DNA from: Eledone cirrhosa
Taxonomy: Eukaryota
Assembly: GCA_964016885.1 (NCBI GenBank)
Contig: OZ024740.1
Coordinates: 177,816,001-177,880,000, forward strand
Length of the DNA stretch: 64,000 bases
Direction of reading: 5' to 3'
Shown: one piece after another, positions 15,163 through 45,652 of the stretch
Layout of the letters: every line of letters begins with the position of its first letter
Position numbering within the stretch: the stretch's first letter is position 1
Translations under genes and position numbers: made by a program
The notes under the pieces: model-generated
Database searches by the model: none
What the model saw: only the letters and a program-made list of their open reading frames with translations
Told to the model about the DNA's origin: nothing

Positions 15163-17989
15163 AGAATTGAGATCACCCTCAAACAAGATTTGAGAGCTGT
15201 TAGCGAAAAACGCCGATACCTGAAGAAGGTAGATGAGAGAAAAGTGCTTAATAAAAGATTCAGACGAAACCAAACATCAATCTATAGAGATATGAAGAAC
15301 AAAGTAATAAGTGTCACTGAGGCCCCATCCCAGAAAGACATAGATTCCTTTTGGAGCAAAATATGGGATGAAAAGAAGAATTTCAACCAAGATGCAGTGT
15401 GACTAAGAGAAATCCGAAAGAACTATTGCTCCTACACTACGACAAAAACATACGAAATAAGTGAGAGTACCCTTGAGACTGTGATAGGAAAACTCCAAGA
15501 TAAGAAAACACCAGGAAGAGACATGATTGTCGGCTACTGGTACAAAAAACTGATATTCTATCGGAGGTATCTTACTGACCTCTACCAACAAGTTCTTAAG
15601 GGAGATACACTTATACCAGAATGGTTGACATTAGCACAAACATTACAGATCCCTAAGAACAAAGACACCCACTTGGCAAAAAACTACCGATCCATTGCAT
15701 GCCAGAACCTGATGTATAAGATGTATACAGCCTGCCTGAACCTATTCCTCCAAGATCACTGTGAAAATAATAACATCATCACAGATGAACAAGCAGCTAG
15801 AAAGAAAGGGGTTTGGGGATGTGCTGAACAACTCCTAATAAACAAAACTGCGATGTCGGAGGTGCGACAACTTAGGAGGAATATGGCTACAGTCTGGCTG
15901 GACTACAGGAAAGCTTTCGATTCTGTTCCCCACTCTTGAATGATGCAGGCCCTCTAACTTGCTAAAGTCCCAGACATTATTGTCAGAGCGATAGAGAGGC
16001 TATCTTCTTCTTGGGCTACTATCCTAAGGTTAAAGACAGAGAGGGAGGACTCTATTTTCACTGATAAAATAAATTATCGCATGGGTATATTTCAGGGAGA
16101 CAGTCTCTCTGTGATATTATTCATCTTGTCATTAAACCCCTTGTCCTTTCTGCTCAAGAAATGTGAGGGATACATCATTGGCTCACAGGAAGACAGAAAT
16201 ACGAACCTAACCAATAATTTCTTTGTGGACGATCTGAAACTCTATGACAAGGACATGGATGGGATGAAGAAAAATCTTGACCTGGTTACAACGTTCTCAA
16301 ATGATATAGGAATGGAGTTTGGCCAAGATAAATGCTCATACATGACTGTAAAGCGGGGAAAAACAACAACCCAATCTAGCAACATTGTCATCAATGGCCT
16401 AACTGTTTCACCGATATCTGACGAGGACTGCTACAGATACCTGGGGATAGATGAGAACATATCCTATAATGGTATCTGTAATAAGGAACGCGTAACCAGG
16501 GAATACTACACCCGAATAAGAAAGATTTGGTCATCGGAACTCTCTGCGCAAAACAAAACAATGGCTCACAATGTGTTTGCTGTGCCTGTCCTAACACCAA
16601 CGTTTGGAATACTCAATTGGACGATAGACGAAATCCGAGCAGTTGATGTTGGAACTCTAAAAATACTAAACAACACCGGAAACTTCCACATCAACAGTGA
16701 TATAGACCGCCTTTACTTGAAACGTAAGCAGGGAGGCAGAGGCCTAACATCAGTCCAGGCAGCATTTGAATGTCGCATCATATCCCTCCGACAACATCTA
16801 CGAACCTCGAAGCGTAGGAGCCTGTCGCTCGAGCAAGTCTATCTGCATGAAACAGATAAGATCATGATAGTAGGGAAGGAACTCCTCGAGAGATGTTCCC
16901 TGTATGATAATCAAAAACTCACACCCAGGGAAGTCGCTCAGCAGTATCGCAGTGAATCCATGGATGAAAAACTGCATGCTTATCAGCAAAAAATCATGCA
17001 TGGATATGTTGCCAGGAAGTTCCAGAGTGAGAGTAATATAGATAAGGGAAGTAATCTATCTTTGACCAACAACCGCTATATTGGCTCCCACTTTGAAGGA
17101 TACGCTTTTGCAATCCAAGAACAGGAGATTAAAACGAAATACCTGATTCACAAGAGATAGGGATGCAGGCAAAACACCTAAATGTGATAACAAGTGCAGA
17201 CTCTGCAGAACTAACATCGAGGATATCACCCATGTCATCAGCAGCTGTCCAAAGATGTCATCGCGGTATTATCTACCTATGAGGCATGATGTAGTGGCCA
17301 AAACACTGTAAAATGCAGTTCGTAAAAAAGATAGCCCCGATAATAAACATTAAAAGCTACAACTATCTGGAAGACATCCACGTACATAATATGAAAGAGT
17401 ACTGGTGGAATGTTCCAGTAATTATGATATGGGACAGGGAGAAGAAAGCATGCACAGTAGTGGAAATTAGCTGCCCAGCAGATGCCAATATAATATCAAA
17501 GATTAGTGAAAAGGAGAATATTTATGCAGAACTGATGAGAAATCTGCAGATACTCCACCCTGATTACACCTTCAGATTTATGCCTGTGATTATTGGGGCA
17601 CTGGGGTATGTTAGTAACTGCCTCAATACAAATCTTGAAAAGCTAGGCTTCACAGGAACAGAAAGAACACAACTAGTTAGGAAATTACAAATACAATCCA
17701 TTAATGGAACAATAAAAATATGCAAAGAATTCCAAAATTCTGCATCTAATAACTATATATACACATGTACAGATACAAATCATATGCAAACGCACACATA
17801 TAACTCAAAACATCCACATCCACACATACATTAACATCCATACCTGCACACACATAAATGCATGTAGACATGCATACATATCTATTTAGTTGATGTTGTT
17901 TAAATTCAAATGTGAGAGTGTTGTGTCTATGTTAGAAACCGACTCTCTCTCTGTTGGTAAAAATTTATAAAATTATAAAACCAGAAGAA
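15163..17989 (+). mobile_element. R4/Dong-clade non-LTR retrotransposon (RT + zinc knuckle + restriction-like endonuclease), 5'-truncated and disrupted
   Basis: WLDYRKAFDSVPH, GIFQGDSLS, FFVDDLKLY, YRYLG, CRLC..EDITHVISSC..RHD, IWDREKK..VEISCPAD; several in-frame stops; flanked by (ACAT)n. Confidence 0.9.
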
Positions 17990-28828: not shown

Positions 28829-28863
<35 letters not shown>

Positions 28864-28889
28864 GGAGGTGAGTTTTATTGTAGTACAAT

Positions 28890-30370
28890 ATTGTAGTATA
28901 ATAAAAACAAACTAAAATTTGTTCAATTTGATATTGCCAGCTACTATTCCTCCATTTCGCCTTCACTTCTCAATAATGCTCTATCTTTCGCACTTAAATA
29001 TTCTGACATCACCACAGATGAACTTCACATCATTCTCACCGCACGTAAAACCATCCTAGAGTTCAACAACGAATATTGGACCAGAGCCGATACCTCTAAC
29101 AACTTCGACATCACAATGGGAGCATCCGATTCATCCCAATTGACTGATTTAATTGGTATCTTTATTTTGAACTCTTTGAGTCGGAAAATTCCTCAACTTC
29201 GCGGTGGAATTTATCGTGACGATGGACTCTTTACTATCTTAAATTGCAATATAGTTAACCTTAATATTATTAAGAACAATATACGTAATCTCTTTAACCA
29301 ACATAACCTAAAAATTGAATTTGATAACAGTATCAAACTAGCTAATTTCTTGGATGTATCTTTTAATCTTGACACTGGCCTATATTACCCTTACCATAAA
29401 AACAATGAGAACCTAAATTATGTTAACTTTAAATCTAACCATCCTACTAATATCAAGAATGCTATAGTTAGTAATATTGGAAAAAGAATATCTAACCTAT
29501 CTTCTAATAAAAACATCTTTGATGCTAACGCCAATTACTATAATAACGCGCTTTCTAAAGCCGGCTATCCTGATAAAATCAAATATAGTAAAGAAACAAA
29601 TTCTAGAAGAACTTACAGTAGAATAATTAATCATGATCATTCCAATAACTTTAACAAAAGACCTAGATACAAAAACATAATCTGGTATAATGCTCCTTTC
29701 TCCATCTCTATTAATAACAATATTCCTAAATTATTCTTTAGTGCCTTAAATTAATGCTTCCCTCCCTCACATATCTATAGTAAAATATTTAACAAACACA
29801 CCATAAAATTTTCTTATTCTACATCCTCCAACATTTCCAACATTATCTCTAAACACAACAATAAAATACTAAATACTAAATCTCTTCCTTCCAACACTGA
29901 ATTTCATAATAATAGTACTCCCGACGTCATTGTAAACCCTAGGCTAATTTCTACAAACCCAAATACAACGTCAAACACAACTTCGCTAAATGTTCATAAT
30001 CCCACTCTAAATCAAGAAACTATTATTCCTATCGCAAATAACTTCTCCAATCCAATTCCTTCTATAGATAACACTAGGTCACTCATTAATAATCTCTCTA
30101 ATTGCAATTGCAATTGCCCTATTAAAAATAAATGTCCTCTCAACAACCATTGTCTTGATAAAAACTTAATTTACGAATGTAAAGTTATAACTGACACCAA
30201 TTCCTTCACCTATTTTGGCTCCACTTCCACCTCTTTTAAAGTTCGTCTTTATAACCATCATTCATCTTTTAAATACAAACTTAAAAGAACCAACACGGCT
30301 CTCTCAGAACTCATATGGTCCTTGAAAGACAAAAACATTAAATATAGCATCTTTTGGAAGAAGATTTCTT
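28890..30370 (+). mobile_element. Penelope-like element, Naiad-like, truncated at both ends
   Basis: FDITMGASDSSQ, YRDDGL, FLDV, IIWYNAPFS, CNC..KCPLNNHCL..IY..YFGST..FK.RL.NH..SF, LSELIWSLK; TAA stop at 29752-29754. Confidence 0.8.
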
Positions 30371-31267
30371 CGTACAGTAGTATGTATATATATACATACA
30401 TGCACACATATATATATATGCACGTATCGGTTTACCTAACATTTATTACAATGCTCGGTTTGTTTGTTTGTAAACAAACAAACAGCCCGAATTACGCCGT
30501 ACAGTGTTTAGGCAACCACGTCACCCTTTTGTTCAACACTGACACAGGAACGATGTACCAGTTTCAAGCTTATTAGCTATCGTCAGCATCGTAAACCTTC
30601 CTGCCAGATGGTTGAACGTCTGAAAGTATATACTTTCCTTATGCATATTAACGGCTGAGCAGCCTAATTTGCATATCGAGTGAGTTCAGTCGGCCGGGCA
30701 CACCGAAAACGATAAATGGAATAGAATGAAACGAAATTTCATTTCTCACTCTTAGGACGGCACTTACTGGTGACGTGGTTGCCTAAACACTGTACGGCGT
30801 AATTCGGGCTTTTGTTTGTTTACAAACAAACAAACCGAGCATTGTAATAAATGTTCGGTAAACGGATACGTGCATATATATATATGTGTGCATGTATGTA
30901 TATATATACATACTACTGTACGTCTGTATACATATAGGTATGTACGTATACATACATACTTACATTTAAGTAAGTGCCGTACTAAGAGTGAGAAATGAAA
31001 TTTCGTTTCATTCTATTCCATATATATATATATAACGAAGGAAATGTGGTAAGGAACCAGATGGACCATAACGCACCAAAGTACTCAATACTTAGGGTAG
31101 TAGAGTGGGTAATAGGAACGAGTAGGACCCCGTTCCTATATATATTGAGAAAGGTTCTGGACAACAGGCAGTAGCTAAATGCCAGTTGTAGTCCGATATT
31201 TCCTAAAATAACCGGCCCAAAGCAATATCAAAGTTAATCGTGGTAAACAGACAAGTAATAATAATTG

Positions 31268-34505: not shown

Positions 34506-34873
34506 TTAAGGCTTTGTGGTTAAGGTATTCGTCTCACAACCGTAAGGTGGTATCTTTGAGCAAGACACTTTATTTCATATTGCTTCGGTCAACTCAGCTG
34601 GCAAAAATGAGTTGTACCTGTAAATCGAAGGGCCAGCCTTGTTACGTTCGGTGTCACGCTGAATCTTCCAGAGAACTATGTTAAGGGTACGTCCGTCTGT
34701 CTGTGAATGGTCAGCCACTTGCACTTTAATTTTACGAGCAGGCTGTTCCGTTGATCGGATCAATTGCAACACTCATCGTCGCAACCCATGGAGTGGTAGT
34801 AAAATATACATACATATATATATATATATATATACATTTTTTTTCTTCCTAATAATCGTCTTTTTCTCCCTGT

Positions 34874-34903
<30 letters not shown>

Positions 34904-34909
<6 letters not shown>

Positions 34910-37900
34910 ATAAATGCTCTGAAATAGCGATATATATGTGAATATAGACATAGAATATTCGAAAATATTCTGTATGTTTATAATAAACATTTTGAAGACC
35001 TAATCGCTATAGAATAGAATACGTCACGTATTACAATTAGATTCTCGATAAAAGCAAGGGAAGTAATCTACGCGTTTCATTCTCGTAAGAAATCATCAGG
35101 ACTACATATCCAGTGCTTTCATCGAGAATGACACAGCTAGAGACTTATAGAATACTTAGCTGCGTACAGGAACTGGTTTGAAAGAGCGGTTGCCGGTCCG
35201 GCAGAAATTAGAAATTGGAATAAATGCTCTGAAATAGCGATATATATGTGAATATAGACATAGAATATTCGAAAATATTCTGTATGTTTATAATAAACAT
35301 TTTGAAGACCTAATCGCTATAGAATAGAATACGTCACGTATTACAATTAGATTCTCGATAAAAGCAAGGGAAGTAATCTACGCGTTTCATTCTCGTAAGA
35401 AATCATCAGGACTACATATCCAGTGCTTTCATCGAGAATGACACAGCTAGAGACTTATAGAATACTTAGCTGCGTACAGGAACTGGTTTGAAAGAGCGGT
35501 TGCCGGTCCGGCAGAAATTAGAAATTGGAATAAATGCTCTGAAATAGCGATATATATGTGAATATAGACATAGAATATTCGAAAATATTCTGTATGTTTA
35601 TAATAAACATTTTGAAGACCTAATCGCTATAGAATAGAATACGTCACGTATTACAATTAGATTCTCGATAAAAGCAAGGGAAGTAATCTACGCGTTTCAT
35701 TCTCGTAAGAAATCATCAGGACTACATATCCAGTGCTTTCATCGAGAATGACACAGCTAGAGACTTATAGAATACTTAGCTGCGTACAGGAACTGGTTTG
35801 AAAGAGCGGTTGCCGGTCCGGCAGAAATTAGAAATTGGAATAAATGCTCTGAAATAGCGATATATATGTGAATATAGACATAGAATATTCGAAAATATTC
35901 TGTATGTTTATAATAAACATTTTGAAGACCTAATCGCTATAGAATAGAATACGTCACGTATTACAATTAGATTCTCGATAAAAGCAAGGGAAGTAATCTA
36001 CGCGTTTCATTCTCGTAAGAAATCATCAGGACTACATATCCAGTGCTTTCATCGAGAATGACACAGCTAGAGACTTATAGAATACTTAGCTGCGTACAGG
36101 AACTGGTTTGAAAGAGCGGTTGCCGGTCCGGCAGAAATTAGAAATTGGAATAAATGCTCTGAAATAGCGATATATATGTGAATATAGACATAGAATATTC
36201 GAAAATATTCTGTATGTTTATAATAAACATTTTGAAGACCTAATCGCTATAGAATAGAATACGTCACGTATTACAATTAGATTCTCGATAAAAGCAAGGG
36301 AAGTAATCTACGCGTTTCATTCTCGTAAGAAATCATCAGGACTACATATCCAGTGCTTTCATCGAGAATGACACAGCTAGAGACTTATAGAATACTTAGC
36401 TGCGTACAGGAACTGGTTTGAAAGAGCGGTTGCCGGTCCGGCAGAAATTAGAAATTGGAATAAATGCTCTGAAATAGCGATATATATGTGAATATAGACA
36501 TAGAATATTCGAAAATATTCTGTATGTTTATAATAAACATTTTGAAGACCTAATCGCTATAGAATAGAATACGTCACGTATTACAATTAGATTCTCGATA
36601 AAAGCAAGGGAAGTAATCTACGCGTTTCATTCTCGTAAGAAATCATCAGGACTACATATCCAGTGCTTTCATCGAGAATGACACAGCTAGAGACTTATAG
36701 AATACTTAGCTGCGTACAGGAACTGGTTTGAAAGAGCGGTTGCCGGTCCGGCAGAAATTAGAAATTGGAATAAATGCTCTGAAATAGCGATATATATGTG
36801 AATATAGACATAGAATATTCGAAAATATTCTGTATGTTTATAATAAACATTTTGAAGACCTAATCGCTATAGAATAGAATACGTCACGTATTACAATTAG
36901 ATTCTCGATAAAAGCAAGGGAAGTAATCTACGCGTTTCATTCTCGTAAGAAATCATCAGGACTACATATCCAGTGCTTTCATCGAGAATGACACAGCTAG
37001 AGACTTATAGAATACTTAGCTGCGTACAGGAACTGGTTTGAAAGAGCGGTTGCCGGTCCGGCAGAAATTAGAAATTGGAATAAATGCTCTGAAATAGCGA
37101 TATATATGTGAATATAGACATAGAATATTCGAAAATATTCTGTATGTTTATAATAAACATTTTGAAGACCTAATCGCTATAGAATAGAATACGTCACGTA
37201 TTACAATTAGATTCTCGATAAAAGCAAGGGAAGTAATCTACGCGTTTCATTCTCGTAAGAAATCATCAGGACTACATATCCAGTGCTTTCATCGAGAATG
37301 ACACAGCTAGAGACTTATAGAATACTTAGCTGCGTACAGGAACTGGTTTGAAAGAGCGGTTGCCGGTCCGGCAGAAATTAGAAATTGGAATAAATGCTCT
37401 GAAATAGCGATATATATGTGAATATAGACATAGAATATTCGAAAATATTCTGTATGTTTATAATAAACATTTTGAAGACCTAATCGCTATAGAATAGAAT
37501 ACGTCACGTATTACAATTAGATTCTCGATAAAAGCAAGGGAAGTAATCTACGCGTTTCATTCTCGTAAGAAATCATCAGGACTACATATCCAGTGCTTTC
37601 ATCGAGAATGACACAGCTAGAGACTTATAGAATACTTAGCTGCGTACAGGAACTGGTTTGAAAGAGCGGTTGCCGGTCCGGCAGAAATTAGAAATTGGAA
37701 TAAATGCTCTGAAATAGCGATATATATGTGAATATAGACATAGAATATTCGAAAATATTCTGTATGTTTATAATAAACATTTTGAAGACCTAATCGCTAT
37801 AGAATAGAATACGTCACGTATTACAATTAGATTCTCGATAAAAGCAAGGGAAGTAATCTACGCGTTTCATTCTCGTAAGAAATCATCAGGACTACATATC

Positions 37901-37944
37901 CAGTGCTTTCATCGAGAATGACACAGCTAGAGACTTATAGAATA
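34904..37944 (-). repeat. 310-bp tandem array, left arm (~9.8 units; ribozyme on minus strand)
   Basis: Exact 310-bp periodicity (ttggaa ends at 34910, 35220, ...); no differences between units seen by eye. Confidence 0.97.
35063..35105 (-). ncRNA. type I hammerhead ribozyme (first of 10 copies at 310-bp spacing, last at 37853-37895)
   Basis: Reverse complement reads GTAGTC-CTGATGA-tttct-TACG-agaat-GAAAC-GC-GTA-GATTAC. Confidence 0.85.
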
Positions 37945-40761
37945 TTTTCGAATATTCTATGTCTATATTCACATATATATCGCTATTTCAGAGCATTTAT
38001 TCCAATTTCTAATTTCTGCCGGACCGGCAACCGCTCTTTCAAACCAGTTCCTGTACGCAGCTAAGTATTCTATAAGTCTCTAGCTGTGTCATTCTCGATG
38101 AAAGCACTGGATATGTAGTCCTGATGATTTCTTACGAGAATGAAACGCGTAGATTACTTCCCTTGCTTTTATCGAGAATCTAATTGTAATACGTGACGTA
38201 TTCTATTCTATAGCGATTAGGTCTTCAAAATGTTTATTATAAACATACAGAATATTTTCGAATATTCTATGTCTATATTCACATATATATCGCTATTTCA
38301 GAGCATTTATTCCAATTTCTAATTTCTGCCGGACCGGCAACCGCTCTTTCAAACCAGTTCCTGTACGCAGCTAAGTATTCTATAAGTCTCTAGCTGTGTC
38401 ATTCTCGATGAAAGCACTGGATATGTAGTCCTGATGATTTCTTACGAGAATGAAACGCGTAGATTACTTCCCTTGCTTTTATCGAGAATCTAATTGTAAT
38501 ACGTGACGTATTCTATTCTATAGCGATTAGGTCTTCAAAATGTTTATTATAAACATACAGAATATTTTCGAATATTCTATGTCTATATTCACATATATAT
38601 CGCTATTTCAGAGCATTTATTCCAATTTCTAATTTCTGCCGGACCGGCAACCGCTCTTTCAAACCAGTTCCTGTACGCAGCTAAGTATTCTATAAGTTTC
38701 TAGCTGTGTCATTCTCGATGAAAGCACTGGATATGTAGTCCTGATGATTTCTTACGAGAATGAAACGCGTAGATTACTTCCCTTGCTTTTATCGAGAATC
38801 TAATTGTAATACGTGACGTATTCTATTCTATAGCGATTAGGTCTTCAAAATGTTTATTATAAACATACAGAATATTTTCGAATATTCTATGTCTATATTC
38901 ACATATATATCGCTATTTCAGAGCATTTATTCCAATTTCTAATTTCTGCCGGACCGGCAACCGCTCTTTCAAACCAGTTCCTGTACGCAGCTAAGTATTC
39001 TATAAGTCTCTAGCTGTGTCATTCTCGATGAAAGCACTGGATATGTAGTCCTGATGATTTCTTACGAGAATGAAACGCGTAGATTACTTCCCTTGCTTTT
39101 ATCGAGAATCTAATTGTAATACGTGACGTATTCTATTCTATAGCGATTAGGTCTTCAAAATGTTTATTATAAACATACAGAATATTTTCGAATATTCTAT
39201 GTCTATATTCACATATATATCGCTATTTCAGAGCATTTATTCCAATTTCTAATTTCTGCCGGACCGGCAACCGCTCTTTCAAACCAGTTCCTGTACGCAG
39301 CTAAGTATTCTATAAGTCTCTAGCTGTGTCATTCTCGATGAAAGCACTGGATATGTAGTCCTGATGATTTCTTACGAGAATGAAACGCGTAGATTACTTC
39401 CCTTGCTTTTATCGAGAATCTAATTGTAATACGTGACGTATTCTATTCTATAGCGATTAGGTCTTCAAAATGTTTATTATAAACATACAGAATATTTTCG
39501 AATATTCTATGTCTATATTCACATATATATCGCTATTTCAGAGCATTTATTCCAATTTCTAATTTCTGCCGGACCGGCAACCGCTCTTTCAAACCAGTTC
39601 CTGTACGCAGCTAAGTATTCTATAAGTCTCTAGCTGTGTCATTCTCGATGAAAGCACTGGATATGTAGTCCTGATGATTTCTTACGAGAATGAAACGCGT
39701 AGATTACTTCCCTTGCTTTTATCGAGAATCTAATTGTAATACGTGACGTATTCTATTCTATAGCGATTAGGTCTTCAAAATGTTTATTATAAACATACAG
39801 AATATTTTCGAATATTCTATGTCTATATTCACATATATATCGCTATTTCAGAGCATTTATTCCAATTTCTAATTTCTGCCGGACCGGCAACCGCTCTTTC
39901 AAACCAGTTCCTGTACGCAGCTAAGTATTCTATAAGTCTCTAGCTGTGTCATTCTCGATGAAAGCACTGGATATGTAGTCCTGATGATTTCTTACGAGAA
40001 TGAAACGCGTAGATTACTTCCCTTGCTTTTATCGAGAATCTAATTGTAATACGTGACGTATTCTATTCTATAGCGATTAGGTCTTCAAAATGTTTATTAT
40101 AAACATACAGAATATTTTCGAATATTCTATGTCTATATTCACATATATATCGCTATTTCAGAGCATTTATTCCAATTTCTAATTTCTGCCGGACCGGCAA
40201 CCGCTCTTTCAAACCAGTTCCTGTACGCAGCTAAGTATTCTATAAGTCTCTAGCTGTGTCATTCTCGATGAAAGCACTGGATATGTAGTCCTGATGATTT
40301 CTTACGAGAATGAAACGCGTAGATTACTTCCCTTGCTTTTATCGAGAATCTAATTGTAATACGTGACGTATTCTATTCTATAGCGATTAGGTCTTCAAAA
40401 TGTTTATTATAAACATACAGAATATTTTCGAATATTCTATGTCTATATTCACATATATATCGCTATTTCAGAGCATTTATTCCAATTTCTAATTTCTGCC
40501 GGACCGGCAACCGCTCTTTCAAACCAGTTCCTGTACGCAGCTAAGTATTCTATAAGTCTCTAGCTGTGTCATTCTCGATGAAAGCACTGGATATGTAGTC
40601 CTGATGATTTCTTACGAGAATGAAACGCGTAGATTACTTCCCTTGCTTTTATCGAGAATCTAATTGTAATACGTGACGTATTCTATTCTATAGCGATTAG
40701 GTCTTCAAAATGTTTATTATAAACATACAGAATATTTTCGAATATTCTATGTCTATATTCA
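37939..40761 (+). repeat. 310-bp tandem array, right arm (~9.1 units, inverted relative to left arm)
   Basis: Reverse complement of the left-arm unit; one visible variant (C>T at 38698). Confidence 0.97.
38115..38157 (+). ncRNA. type I hammerhead ribozyme (first of 9 copies, last at 40595-40637)
   Basis: Stem I GTAGTC/GATTAC, core CTGATGA 38121-38127, stem II TTCT/AGAA with TACG loop, GAAA 38142-38145, palindromic stem III ACGCGT, GUA cleavage after 38151; stem I extends 38091-38179. Confidence 0.85.
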
Positions 40762-40787
40762 TATATATATATATATATATATATATG

Positions 40788-42405
<1,618 letters not shown>

Positions 42406-43663: not shown

Positions 43664-45652
43664 GCTGGAAGAGGGGAAGGAAAGCTATAAGTAATTAACA
43701 CGTGTGCGTGTGCGTGTGCGTGCGCGCGTGTGTGTGTGTGTGCGTGTGTGTGTGTGTGCGTGCGCGTGTGTGTGTGTGCGTGTGTGTGTGTGTGTGTGTT
43801 CGCGTAGGGTTCCATTATGAGTTAAATCTATTAACATGTGTGTGTGAGTTTGCGTGCGTTTCTGCGTTTGCGTGCTTCAGTGTGTGTGTGTACTTGCGTG
43901 TGGCGTTTCATTTACGCCATTTTTGTCACTGACAACATATTCACTAACTTACATTCATTCCAACCGCTGCTCTTACTGTTACCCCTCTCCCTATACATAC
44001 ACCGTTCGGAAATCACATGCATCGGTTTTTAATTCCTCTCCTCTGTGGCGCCATGTCAGGACACTGATTCTTATAACCAACATGAGAGTTCAATTACACG
44101 GCGACCAAACGTCCGCAGAATTTGCACAGGACATTTTGAAACTTGGCGACGGCAAAATACCTCTGGACGCTGCAGGAGAGTTGGAAGTGTGGCCATTTTC
44201 GACCTCAGTTAATTCTGCGGGGGAACTGAAAGACAAAGTGTTTCCAGATTTGAGAGACAATTACCAGAACCACGCATGGTTGTGTGAAAGAGCAGTGCTA
44301 GCTCCAAAAAACGTTGCTGTTAACAAAACCAACGACCAACTACTGCACTCCCTTCCTGGTGTTCTTCACACTTACAAATCTGTTGACACGATGCCAGATT
44401 CCAATGAAGAGGTGAACTTTCCGCCGGAGTTCCTCAATTCTTTGGAGTCCCCAAGACTACCGCTTCACATGCTTCTCCTTAAAGTTGGCACCCCTGTAAT
44501 GCTGCTGCGGAATTTGGAACCACCAAGAATGTGCAACGGGACACGGCTGGCTGTAAAAAAATTGATGGCACATGTAATCGAGGCAACAATCCTTTCTGGA
44601 TGCGGAAAAGGTGATGATGTCTTCATTCCGAGAATTCCTCTCATTCCCTCGGGAGCAGAAATTTCGTTCACCTTCCGAAGACTCCAATTTCCACTTCGGG
44701 TCAGTTTTGCTATGTCCATCAACAAGTCCCAGAGCCAGACTCTTTCTGTGGCCGAACTTCTTCTGGAAGAACCGTGTTTCTCCCACGGACAATTGTACGT
44801 TGAGTACTCTAGAGTGGGCAGCAGGGAAAGTCTTTTCGCATTTGAACGCCGAGGAAAAACAAGAAACATCGTTTACAACGAGGTGTTGTAAATGCAACAG
44901 CGAGGAGATAGGTCAGTAATCACCATTTCTTTAGCCAGCCTGATGAGCTTTTAACTAAAACGTATGTTTCCCTCGGTTAAAGGTAATCGCCTTCAGAGAG
45001 GAACCCAGCTTGACAATCGGCGCGGTAATTTAAGGCGGCTGAACAAATCGTGAACGCATACAGAGTCATTCTAATGGCTGCCAATGAACGCAACTGAAGT
45101 ACTTTTTGCGGCCGTTGGAGAACGCAGACCTTTCAAGGGCTGCAAGTGAACGATCAAACGGCCCTTTTATGGCCGAAATTGTTGATGGTGAGCCCTCATT
45201 TTTAGGGTGTCAGTGAACGCACACACAACCCTATTTAAGAGGCCCTACTTAAAATTGTTTGATGGCTACTGCAATGGTAAATTCATATCGACCAGCATCT
45301 GCTAAAACAGTGTTATCAGCGCTACAATGGACAGACAGGTACGTTATCGCTCTTCTTAACAAGCCCTGTTTACCTTTACTTATTTTTCCTAACAACATTT
45401 GCTTCCTTTGGTTAAAGGTGAACACACACACGACCCTTTCTTAGCCCCCCTCCCCTTCTTCATGAAATTGGAAATTTATTTTGCTCACAAAAATTTTTTT
45501 TTTTATGAACTCAGAATTGATTTCATCGTGTGTCCCAATTGAAGAATAAATTGAATTTTGAAGAACACATTTCTATACAATATATTTTACTCTTTTCTTC
45601 TAATATGTAAGGAACAATTTCATTCCCGGGCAACGCCAGGTGCCTATGCTAG
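42860..45652 (+). mobile_element. Helitron, internally deleted
   Basis: 5' end tatataaaacagaggatgtctgtc..aaaactcgaga (exact start hidden in (TA)n); 3' ccgggcaacgccagg followed by CTAG|T at 45649-45652; helicase ORF inside. Confidence 0.85.
44030..44891 (+). pseudogene. Helitron RepHel PIF1-like helicase, C-terminal fragment
   Basis: S.LW..V..L.L.TNMR, WLCERAVLAPKN, LKVGTPVMLLRNL.PP..CNGTRL, FIPRIPL.P, RLQFP.R.SFAMSINKSQ.QTL, FSHGQLYV..SRV, T.NIVY.EVL. Confidence 0.92.

Follow-up and report, generated by a model that had tools for sequence, protein, structure and literature searches.

The repeat array at 34904-40761 of the window (the whole 64,000-nt stretch of Eledone cirrhosa DNA analysed here) consists of two head-to-head arms of 9.8 and 9.1 units inserted in a (TA)n tract, and is not one tandem run. 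The array probably belongs to a young non-autonomous non-LTR retrozyme, of which a Penelope-like element (PLE) enzyme would have copied one RNA circle in rolling-circle fashion, primed from both ends of the cut (TA)n tract. The informative part of the locus is its inverted two-arm layout, with fixed ends and a PLE tail.

A direct check of the window sequence showed a 310-bp period with near-identical copies across 34904-40761, and a single substitution, at 38698, in the entire array. The preliminary description had presented this region as one run of about 19 units of 310 nt; its coordinates, period and near-identity stand, and the single run is replaced by two inverted arms with a 6-nt overlap. 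The left arm (34904-37944, minus strand) holds 9.81 units and 10 hammerhead motifs, with its RNA-sense strand running leftward, and extends from unit position 165 at its outer end to unit position 225 at its inner end, unit position 1 being the first base 3′ of the predicted cut. The right arm (37939-40761, plus strand) holds 9.11 units and 9 motifs as well as the substitution at 38698, runs rightward in RNA sense, and extends from unit position 98 (inner) to unit position 130 (outer). At the inner junction (37939-37944), 6 nt of microhomology are common to both arms. Only the left outer end carries a further 35 nt, unit positions 131-165 (34904-34938, minus strand), comparable to the PLE "tail" (PMC3846280, PMC11167929). 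The array is bordered by (AT)n target sequence at 34878-34905 and 40761-40786, and the repeat passes straight into (TA)n, with no LTRs at the array. Non-LTR retrozymes are defined by tandem units of about 150-450 bp with a GC content below 50% (PMC7229834); the 310-bp unit fits this range, and its GC count is 109/310. It is ORF-less, as had been described: no ORF exceeds 30 aa, the length of the longest, and neither an RT nor a GIY-YIG ORF is present, so the unit is no autonomous PLE.

An older, 5′-truncated PLE copy (40787-42210, minus strand), with a decayed GIY-YIG-end frame and a decayed hammerhead near 40985-41030, adjoins the same (TA)n with its 3′ end; it is a neighbour and no part of the retrozyme. 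The flanks of the array appear inverted because a fragment of about 45 bp from the 3′ end of the same older PLE family (34836-34878, plus strand) lies on the other side. Two readings of this 45-bp flank, a terminal inverted repeat and an inverted duplication of the target, were rejected since it is the older PLE 3′ end and is absent at other loci. Long-read sequencing is known to generate false palindromes that are long and nearly perfect, and the inversion could in principle have arisen by assembly or read fold-back on a plain satellite. The chance of this is negligible, as it is already contradicted by flanks that diverge beyond 45 bp, by an end asymmetry that follows a rule across loci (see below), by a junction of its own at each locus, with microhomology or inserts, and by contigs of sequencing run X1 (possibly the assembly's own source) that span 12 different arm-to-arm joints.

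The 43-nt hammerhead motif occurs in 19 exact copies in the array, 10 on the minus and 9 on the plus strand, including the previously described copy at 38115-38157 (plus strand), for which cleavage after 38151 is predicted. By inspection, all conserved type I core bases are present in 19/19 copies, with a stem I of 6 bp and a stem II of 4 bp after a U-U juxtaposition. The palindromic stem III noted before was found in all 19 copies as the self-complementary ACGCGU, which suits dimeric cleavage. However, the covariance-model match that had been predicted was not obtained: Rfam gave 0 hammerhead hits at the gathering score over the whole window, and 4 chance hits, no hammerhead among them, at E≤10 over 701 nt. 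The hammerhead call therefore rests on inspection and on the pattern of variants. A covariance match is not part of the published definition of non-LTR retrozymes, which used motif descriptors (PMC7229834). Among the locus-fixed ribozyme substitutions, all 8 distinct changes fall in N7 or loop II or keep a pair, and none lies in the core or stem III, whereas 3/11 single-copy changes do (p about 0.02); this pattern indicates that the ribozyme is under selection. Two observations weigh against the proposed cycle, namely that stem II has a pairing probability of only 7-8% in the folded circle and that only 1/9 predicted Xenopus retrozyme dimers cleaved (preprint 10.64898/2026.07.22.740005).

The array had also been called viroid-like. 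Integrated copies of a viroid-like RNA with additional RNA-to-RNA replication would agree with the fixed variants that many loci have of their own, with a monomer that folds somewhat better than its shuffles (z −2.1), and with the RNA-RNA replication suggested for mussel retrozymes (PMC7229834). However, the ribozyme is present in one polarity only, no hammerhead core being found on the antisense strand of the unit when the sequence was read directly; the monomer fold is branched, not rod-like, and about 60% paired; there is no Rfam match, and mutation of donor units as DNA explains the variants. There is no sign of RNA-to-RNA replication, and we regard this alternative as highly unlikely.

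The hammerhead pattern matched 14,451 times genome-wide, at roughly 1,000-1,500 loci, against 0 matches for the same pattern read backwards, showing that the motif is not due to chance. Among 60 records, 51 have the layout of a minus arm followed by a plus arm, in one this layout is modified by a local duplication, and 8 have a single arm. A long end (unit positions 156-172) was paired with a short end (117-139) in 47/47 two-armed loci with both ends visible, the count leaving out L032, L044, L141 and L143, which are cut by the stretch taken; the pairing also held in all 28 loci not chosen by the tail pattern. The modal outer ends are 165 and either 130 or 139, leaving a tail of about 35 nt at one end. 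The tract (TA)3 lies within 25 nt of 90/94 outer ends, compared with a 10% background, and targets of this kind would mask any target-site duplication (expected, where there is one, to exceed 4 bp in non-LTR retrozymes). Exact tail-to-(AT)n junctions number 1,013 genome-wide. Against these long ends stand 1,207 plus 492 short ends, an excess that disagrees with the favoured reading, the figure of 1,207 being inflated because an internal variant mimics the short end, which spoils a genome-wide 1:1 comparison. This anatomy of tandem 310-bp units, each with a type I hammerhead and no ORF, at many dispersed loci supports the earlier assignment to the retrozymes, and likewise the suggestions that the insertion is recent and that it is a multimeric cDNA of a monomer RNA.

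The predicted cut site is crossed by 97/102 arms, with 506 crossings in all; only one indel was seen at this site, in a single unit of L038, and 1/102 inner ends is 5 nt or less away from it. Such clean passage fits a circle no better than a linear template, namely a long donor-array transcript left uncleaved as a multimer, on which the same two-end PLE priming would proceed with the hammerhead dispensable for copying. The latter agrees with in vitro work on a PLE, in which the enzyme acted mainly on unprocessed RNA and mutation of the hammerhead left insertion unimpaired, cleavage being dispensable (PMC11167929), a result that speaks against the circle. The haplotypes, however, argue for a single-monomer template. 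Both arms share the same haplotype at 44/45 loci, representing 17 haplotypes (6 further loci, in which a short arm does not span the marker sites, being left out), whereas 20,000 permutations gave a mean of 6.1 and a maximum of 19. The window haplotype is present in 18/18 units that cover the marker sites and is absent from the rest of the assembly: of the 29 genome-wide occurrences of the G216 allele, 18 fall within the window, and only there is it combined with G259/T292. A new variant of a single donor unit cannot fill both arms of a linear multimer in one step, and locus-wide variants of their own are likewise present at L212, L215/216 and L217, with a ribozyme core free of locus-fixed variants. 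A donor array with the window haplotype could lie in another haplotype or individual. Three arms (at L036, L038 and L151) are mosaics of two haplotypes, which are unfavourable to one circle per locus and could reflect a mixed donor. On balance, the linear multimer appears unlikely. No RNA run was among those listed as containing the unit, which says nothing about its expression. In sequencing runs X4, X5 and X6, one 340-nt contig each was found, consisting of the unit plus an overlap; these contigs were rejected as evidence of an RNA circle, as tandem DNA yields the same contig.

Alternatively, PLE-type inserts with two arms might have begun at about one unit and been lengthened at the DNA level by unequal crossing-over or slippage. 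For such repeats, unequal crossover has been invoked as a means of local amplification (preprint 10.64898/2026.07.22.740005), and higher-order repeats from later duplication, which run counter to the favoured reading, are present in long arms, with periods of 17 units at L215/216 and 7 units at L141 and a 3-unit pattern at L211, and also at L140. Thus, the longest arms have additionally been lengthened at the DNA level. As a general origin of the arms, however, this is improbable: recurring minor variants are found in just 3/51 two-armed loci (L140, L141, L151), most arms having none or single-copy variants, and the mean arm length of about 1.5 kb is similar to that of PLE palindrome arms. Moreover, in an older sister family, about 92-96% alike, the arms measure about 2 units or less (30 loci), showing that arms do not simply lengthen with age.

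A further alternative is that one cDNA, primed from one end, folds back and copies itself, with endonuclease resolution of the second end leaving the tail. For PLE inverted structures, self-priming has been put forward (PMC3846280), and the tail has been suggested to result from endonuclease resolution (PMC8557442). Fold-back would account for the haplotype common to both arms and for the weak correlation of arm lengths (rho 0.31, p 0.04), which does not favour the reading preferred here. Yet of the two arms, the one with the short end is longer in 19/47 loci and shorter in all others, so there is no fixed first arm; at L151 neither arm can derive from the other; and in vitro the tail corresponds to the distance that separates two RT start sites (PMC11167929). 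We consider fold-back very improbable. Two-end priming, the favoured reading, agrees with the inner junctions, of which 28/38 overlap (one junction per locus, both arms longer than 360 nt), by a mean of 3.4 nt compared with 0.75 under the null; some carry short templated inserts, and others use the unit's own 16-nt inverted repeat. The uneven spread of inner ends round the unit (p 0.007) does not favour it.

Unit positions 59-165 (38210-38316, plus strand) are about 76-82% conserved in two older sister families and are probably the RT recognition region; a hairpin predicted there stops just before the short end. Young PLEs are present in the genome (two ORFs are 99.1% identical), as are PLE palindromes like those of the retrozyme (L095, 99.7%). 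An autonomous PLE with the conserved region was found neither in 50 of the 150 listed GIY-YIG loci (10,594 candidates) nor in 19 further PLE loci, BLAST and a conserved-region profile over the GIY-YIG/PLE loci returned solely non-coding sister families, and no attached intact PLE ORF was found at 30 family-B loci or at 20 of the 83 family-C motif hits. Animal retrozymes show no motif that indicates their partner (PMC7761336).

In the mechanism we propose, the arrays would be transcribed, the hammerheads would cut as dimers and the monomers would be ligated to 310-nt circles, as in known retrozymes. A PLE RT-endonuclease, probably a dimer, would bind around unit positions 59-165 and cut both strands of the (TA)n tract in which the inserts lie. 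Each DNA end would then prime RT on the same RNA, at about 165 on one side and about 130-139 on the other as in the observed end pattern, perhaps aided by 2-8 nt of AT pairing. Because the template would be a circle, each enzyme would go round it several times, past the ligated cut site, and synthesise about 1.5 kb on average. The two antisense cDNAs would be joined 3′ to 3′ through the microhomology, short templated inserts or, sometimes, the 16-nt inverted repeat seen at the junctions, giving a palindrome with head-to-head arms of a single haplotype and a tail on one side only, and some long arms would then be extended by the DNA-level duplication described above. PLE studies in vitro attributed the tail to the gap of two internal RT start sites, found both strands cut and extended, and predicted a dimer (PMC11167929); the same work found start-site choice alike on both strands, which is at odds with one start site per DNA end. 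Copying of circles into multimeric cDNA by PLEs has been a proposal rather than a demonstration (PMC4209133, PMC7229834). In a more specific version, on which we are evenly divided, each locus would be the fossil of one ribozyme-made circle on which the two active sites of a PLE dimer worked at the same time, displacing strands as a double rolling circle, each site primed by one (TA)n side and given its own start site, the two start sites lying 35 nt apart.

How animal retrozymes are copied into DNA and how PLE inverted inserts and one-sided tails originate have both been called unresolved in the literature. In this young family, with more than 1,000 insertions and a short unit repeated in each, start sites, template identity and read-through can be read from every locus; the footprint names an enzyme class. 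If true, the double-rolling-circle version would supply the first direct genomic evidence we found for circle-templated retrotransposition in animals, and the rule of one start site per DNA end would explain the PLE tail and inverted inserts generally. The proposed mechanism would further imply that certain "satellite" arrays are multimeric from birth and do not owe their length to crossover. With its mapped start sites, the 310-nt unit offers a minimal substrate on which to assay a PLE in vitro, and a small circle written into (TA)n sites by a telomerase-like enzyme may be of interest as a gene-insertion tool.

The family type and the PLE link were already published; no paper was found that shows such an insertion footprint on a retrozyme. 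The term "inverted" has 0 occurrences in the main text of PMC7229834, and occurs in the preprint 10.64898/2026.07.22.740005 only within a reference. The metazoan non-LTR retrozymes of coral, mussel, axolotl and newt described in these two sources share with the present family a short, low-GC, ORF-less tandem unit, one type I hammerhead per unit with a palindromic helix III, and thousands of dispersed copies in genomes that also contain PLEs, whereas the inserts of the family here lie in (TA)n as two arms placed head to head, with fixed ends and a tail. The MRC1-type PLEs of Chlamys (PMC8557442) are likewise non-autonomous PLE derivatives with multicopy head-to-tail insertions; however, they belong to a different PLE clade, described as without canonical hammerheads, and have 3′ ends like those of their autonomous partners; for the retrozyme, no such partner turned up among the loci searched. 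GIY-YIG PLEs (PMC3846280, PMC8557442, PMC11167929) share with the retrozyme head-to-head inverted inserts, a tail of 30-40 nt at one end, AT-rich or microsatellite targets, an internal RT start downstream of the hammerhead, and truncated inner ends. In contrast to these PLEs, the retrozyme has no ORF and its unit is about ten times shorter, so that a single insertion contains many identical copies of it and thereby preserves information on template identity and read-through that is rarely available from autonomous PLE inserts.

The array in the window consists of two arms of a 310-bp unit, the left one at 34904-37944 on the minus strand (9.8 units) and the right one at 37939-40761 on the plus strand (9.1 units), which overlap by 6 nt at their inner junction and whose RNA-sense strands point outward. 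The array is bordered by (AT)n on the left and right, and departs from the unit sequence at a single position, 38698. The unit has a GC content of 35% and holds no ORF longer than 30 aa. The preliminary description had presented about 19 units with a 43-nt motif as one run; 19 exact copies of the motif are indeed present, but they divide into 10 on the minus and 9 on the plus strand, so the single run gives way to two arms of opposite orientation. The motif possesses, in the standard core numbering, every conserved base of the type I hammerhead core, together with a stem I of 6 bp, a stem II of 4 bp and a self-complementary stem III whose duplex is computed at −7.5 kcal/mol. The Rfam hammerhead match proposed as a check was not obtained, the motif not being recognised by Rfam. 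A self-complementary stem III design is described as active in dimers (PMC4209133). Unit positions are counted from 38152, the first base 3′ of the predicted cut. In the predicted fold of the monomer circle stem I forms and stem II has a probability of only 7-8%, a low pairing which could either stop the circle from cutting itself or signal weak activity.

The insertion anatomy was analysed in 60 records, comprising the window, 20 of its closest loci, 20 loci taken by position at the beginning of contig C1 (out of the hammerhead-pattern and tail-junction match lists) and 19 chosen by tail pattern. In 51/60 records a minus arm precedes a plus arm; one more record shows the same layout plus a local duplication, and eight are single-armed. 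The mean arm length is 4.8 units. Wherever both ends of a two-armed locus are in view (47/47 loci), a long outer end (positions 156-172, mostly 165) is paired with a short one (117-139, mostly 130 or 139), as is the case in 28/28 among the loci picked without the tail pattern. (TA)3 occurs within 25 nt of 90 of the 94 outer ends, compared with 10% of background windows. Either arm can be the longer, the short-end arm being so in 19/47 loci. Inner ends are scattered round the unit, though non-uniformly (p 0.007), and only 1/102 is found 5 nt or less from the cut site, which is crossed by 97/102 arms (506 crossings in total). The inner junctions overlap in 28/38 loci (mean 3.4 nt; null 0.75), while the others carry inserts of 4-50 nt, some visibly templated by nearby sequence; the unit's own 16-nt inverted repeat (positions 13-28 and 245-260) is used at several joints.

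Among the 45 loci whose two arms both span marker sites, 44 carry the same haplotype in both arms, with 17 haplotypes represented (permutation mean 6.1, maximum 19). Genome-wide there are 29 occurrences of the G216 allele: 18 in the window, where every unit spanning that site has it, seven in one mosaic array of other background and four in single units. Of the 27 copies of the G259/T292 background, 19 are in the window, and its main other locus carries A216 and fixed variants of its own. Because of these distributions, the window haplotype is seen to fill both arms and to be absent elsewhere in the assembly. The filling of a whole array by a new variant in one step implies a one-unit bottleneck. 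An indel at the cut site is present in only one unit, in locus L038, and such clean passage implies that the unit's ends had been joined. Both the bottleneck and the joined ends point to a circular template. However, since the assembly shows one haplotype, a homogeneous donor may be missing from it. In addition, two-haplotype mosaics in three arms (L036, L038 and L151) count against the circle-template model, and call for a mixed donor or for occasional events of template switching or conversion. The long arms were also duplicated later: higher-order repeats of 7 units (L141), 17 units (L215/216) and 3 units (L211) in the longest arms suggest that some arrays were lengthened by duplication at the DNA level, or by assembly error. 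The eight distinct locus-fixed substitutions in the motif fall only at the free N7, in loop II or at stem sites with pairing kept or improved, versus 3/11 single-copy changes in the core or stem III (small numbers, p ~0.02). Judged from these substitutions, the hammerhead ribozyme appears to be under selection.

A degenerate hammerhead pattern gave 14,451 matches in the 3.0-Gb genome and its reversed control 0. In genome-wide pattern searches, position 165 joined exactly to (AT)n occurs 1,013 times and two short-end junction patterns 1,207 and 492 times, the 1,207 being inflated by an internal variant; we estimate the family at 1,000-1,500 loci. A position-131 variant is fixed in the arrays at G000:C1:105760990-105762498, 165008662-165010551 and 169700721-169703824, where each internal unit mimics a short end. 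In L122 and L132 all units are a 311-nt variant, in which a single base added two positions 3′ of the cut site converts a stem I wobble pair to a Watson-Crick pair plus bulge. Sequencing runs X4, X5 and X6, under three other organism labels, contain the 310-nt unit, ~99% alike; any one of close relationship, diet or contamination could account for this.

Positions 59-165 are common to two older non-coding sister families, each with its own hammerhead-like motif. Family B (~2,000 candidates; L133:4360-4720, L052:2430-2870, L115:2010-2370 and L161-L190) has a different hammerhead with a 4-bp palindromic stem III, and shares the start-site region and the two-arm layout, the latter in 11/30 loci with arms of ~2 units or less. 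Family C, third and more decayed (L117:1005-1440 and L191-L205), shares the start-site region, and its end pair is similar. The retrozyme of the window was inserted between two 3′ ends of an older Penelope-like element (PLE) family (40787-42210 and 34836-34878; 2,082 candidates, top copies 92-96% alike), which also adjoin (TA)n and whose short end is like the retrozyme's in the four terminal bases and in an internal run of AT. At 28860-31020 lies a decayed RT-like frame (plus strand, 28897-30573) with a tblastn match to the L208 frame and no Pfam match; it runs up to a short inverted element whose minus strand bears, near 30545-30590, another kind of type I hammerhead, of a family also present in L075 and L173. 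The window also contains, at 43848-44888 and 15958-17157, a Pif1-like helicase fragment of Helitron-like type and an RT fragment, respectively. Several further hammerhead-bearing repeat families exist in the genome, some at PLE ends (L084, L085, L088, L095, L097:4690-4830, L104, L106, L120, L167, L171, L174, L176, L177 and L182), and in many of them an additional or mismatched base separates the core from stem II.

Earlier work has described non-LTR retrozymes and the circles they form, and has proposed RT-made tandem cDNA from these circles (PMC7229834, PMC4209133, PMC7761336). A 2026 preprint (10.64898/2026.07.22.740005) linked retrozymes to PLEs through co-occurrence and terminal-repeat phylogeny; in its available text, molluscs are absent and tandems are attributed to local amplification. 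The same preprint reports cleavage by only 1/9 Xenopus retrozyme dimers, which counts against the circle-template model. Our search, mainly of open literature without supplements, found no record of the present 310-nt family and no description of a retrozyme with inverted arms, with a tail or with paired start sites. We regard the 310-nt family as an undescribed, very young family within a known class.

GIY-YIG elements are many in this genome (150 scored of 10,594 candidates), with RT + GIY-YIG frames reaching 938 aa, and one PLE locus forms a palindrome (99.7%) whose arms measure ~1.6 kb. Two RT + GIY-YIG ORFs, 99.1% identical, carry a CX3CxxC motif ahead of the nuclease, a feature assigned to the Neptune and Nematis clades (PMC8557442). 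No PLE with the retrozyme's conserved region was found in 50 of the 150 listed GIY-YIG loci (10,594 candidates), in 19 further PLE loci or among 20 of 83 family-C motif matches. A young PLE family (L081, L082 and L086), partially tandem with an intact 938-aa RT + GIY-YIG frame, has a hammerhead-like motif with altered core and a long end resembling the retrozyme's minor long end at position 172, and is a candidate partner.

By analogy with known families, the arrays would be transcribed and cleaved as dimers, the units would be ligated into a circle, and a PLE enzyme would be the mobilising agent. The loci themselves suggest that the two DNA ends prime on the same RNA, with one start site per end, and that each primed end may copy the RNA for several rounds. 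We consider PLE-type mobilisation very probable, and the full circle-template model reasonably likely. A purified PLE is reported to cut and extend both strands of AT-rich DNA and to initiate reverse transcription at two sites inside the RNA, which are as far apart as the tail is long; a dimeric form of the enzyme is predicted (PMC11167929). However, hammerhead cleavage was dispensable in vitro and the start site was chosen without strand bias (PMC11167929), both of which count against the circle-template model. The insertion anatomy gives two existing hypotheses evidence that can be counted, and a concrete assay. PLEs form head-to-head inverted inserts with a tail of ~30-40 nt at one end and prefer AT-rich simple repeats (PMC3846280, PMC8557442); the retrozyme arrays match in each respect, and by this likeness their anatomy is the probable footprint of a PLE.
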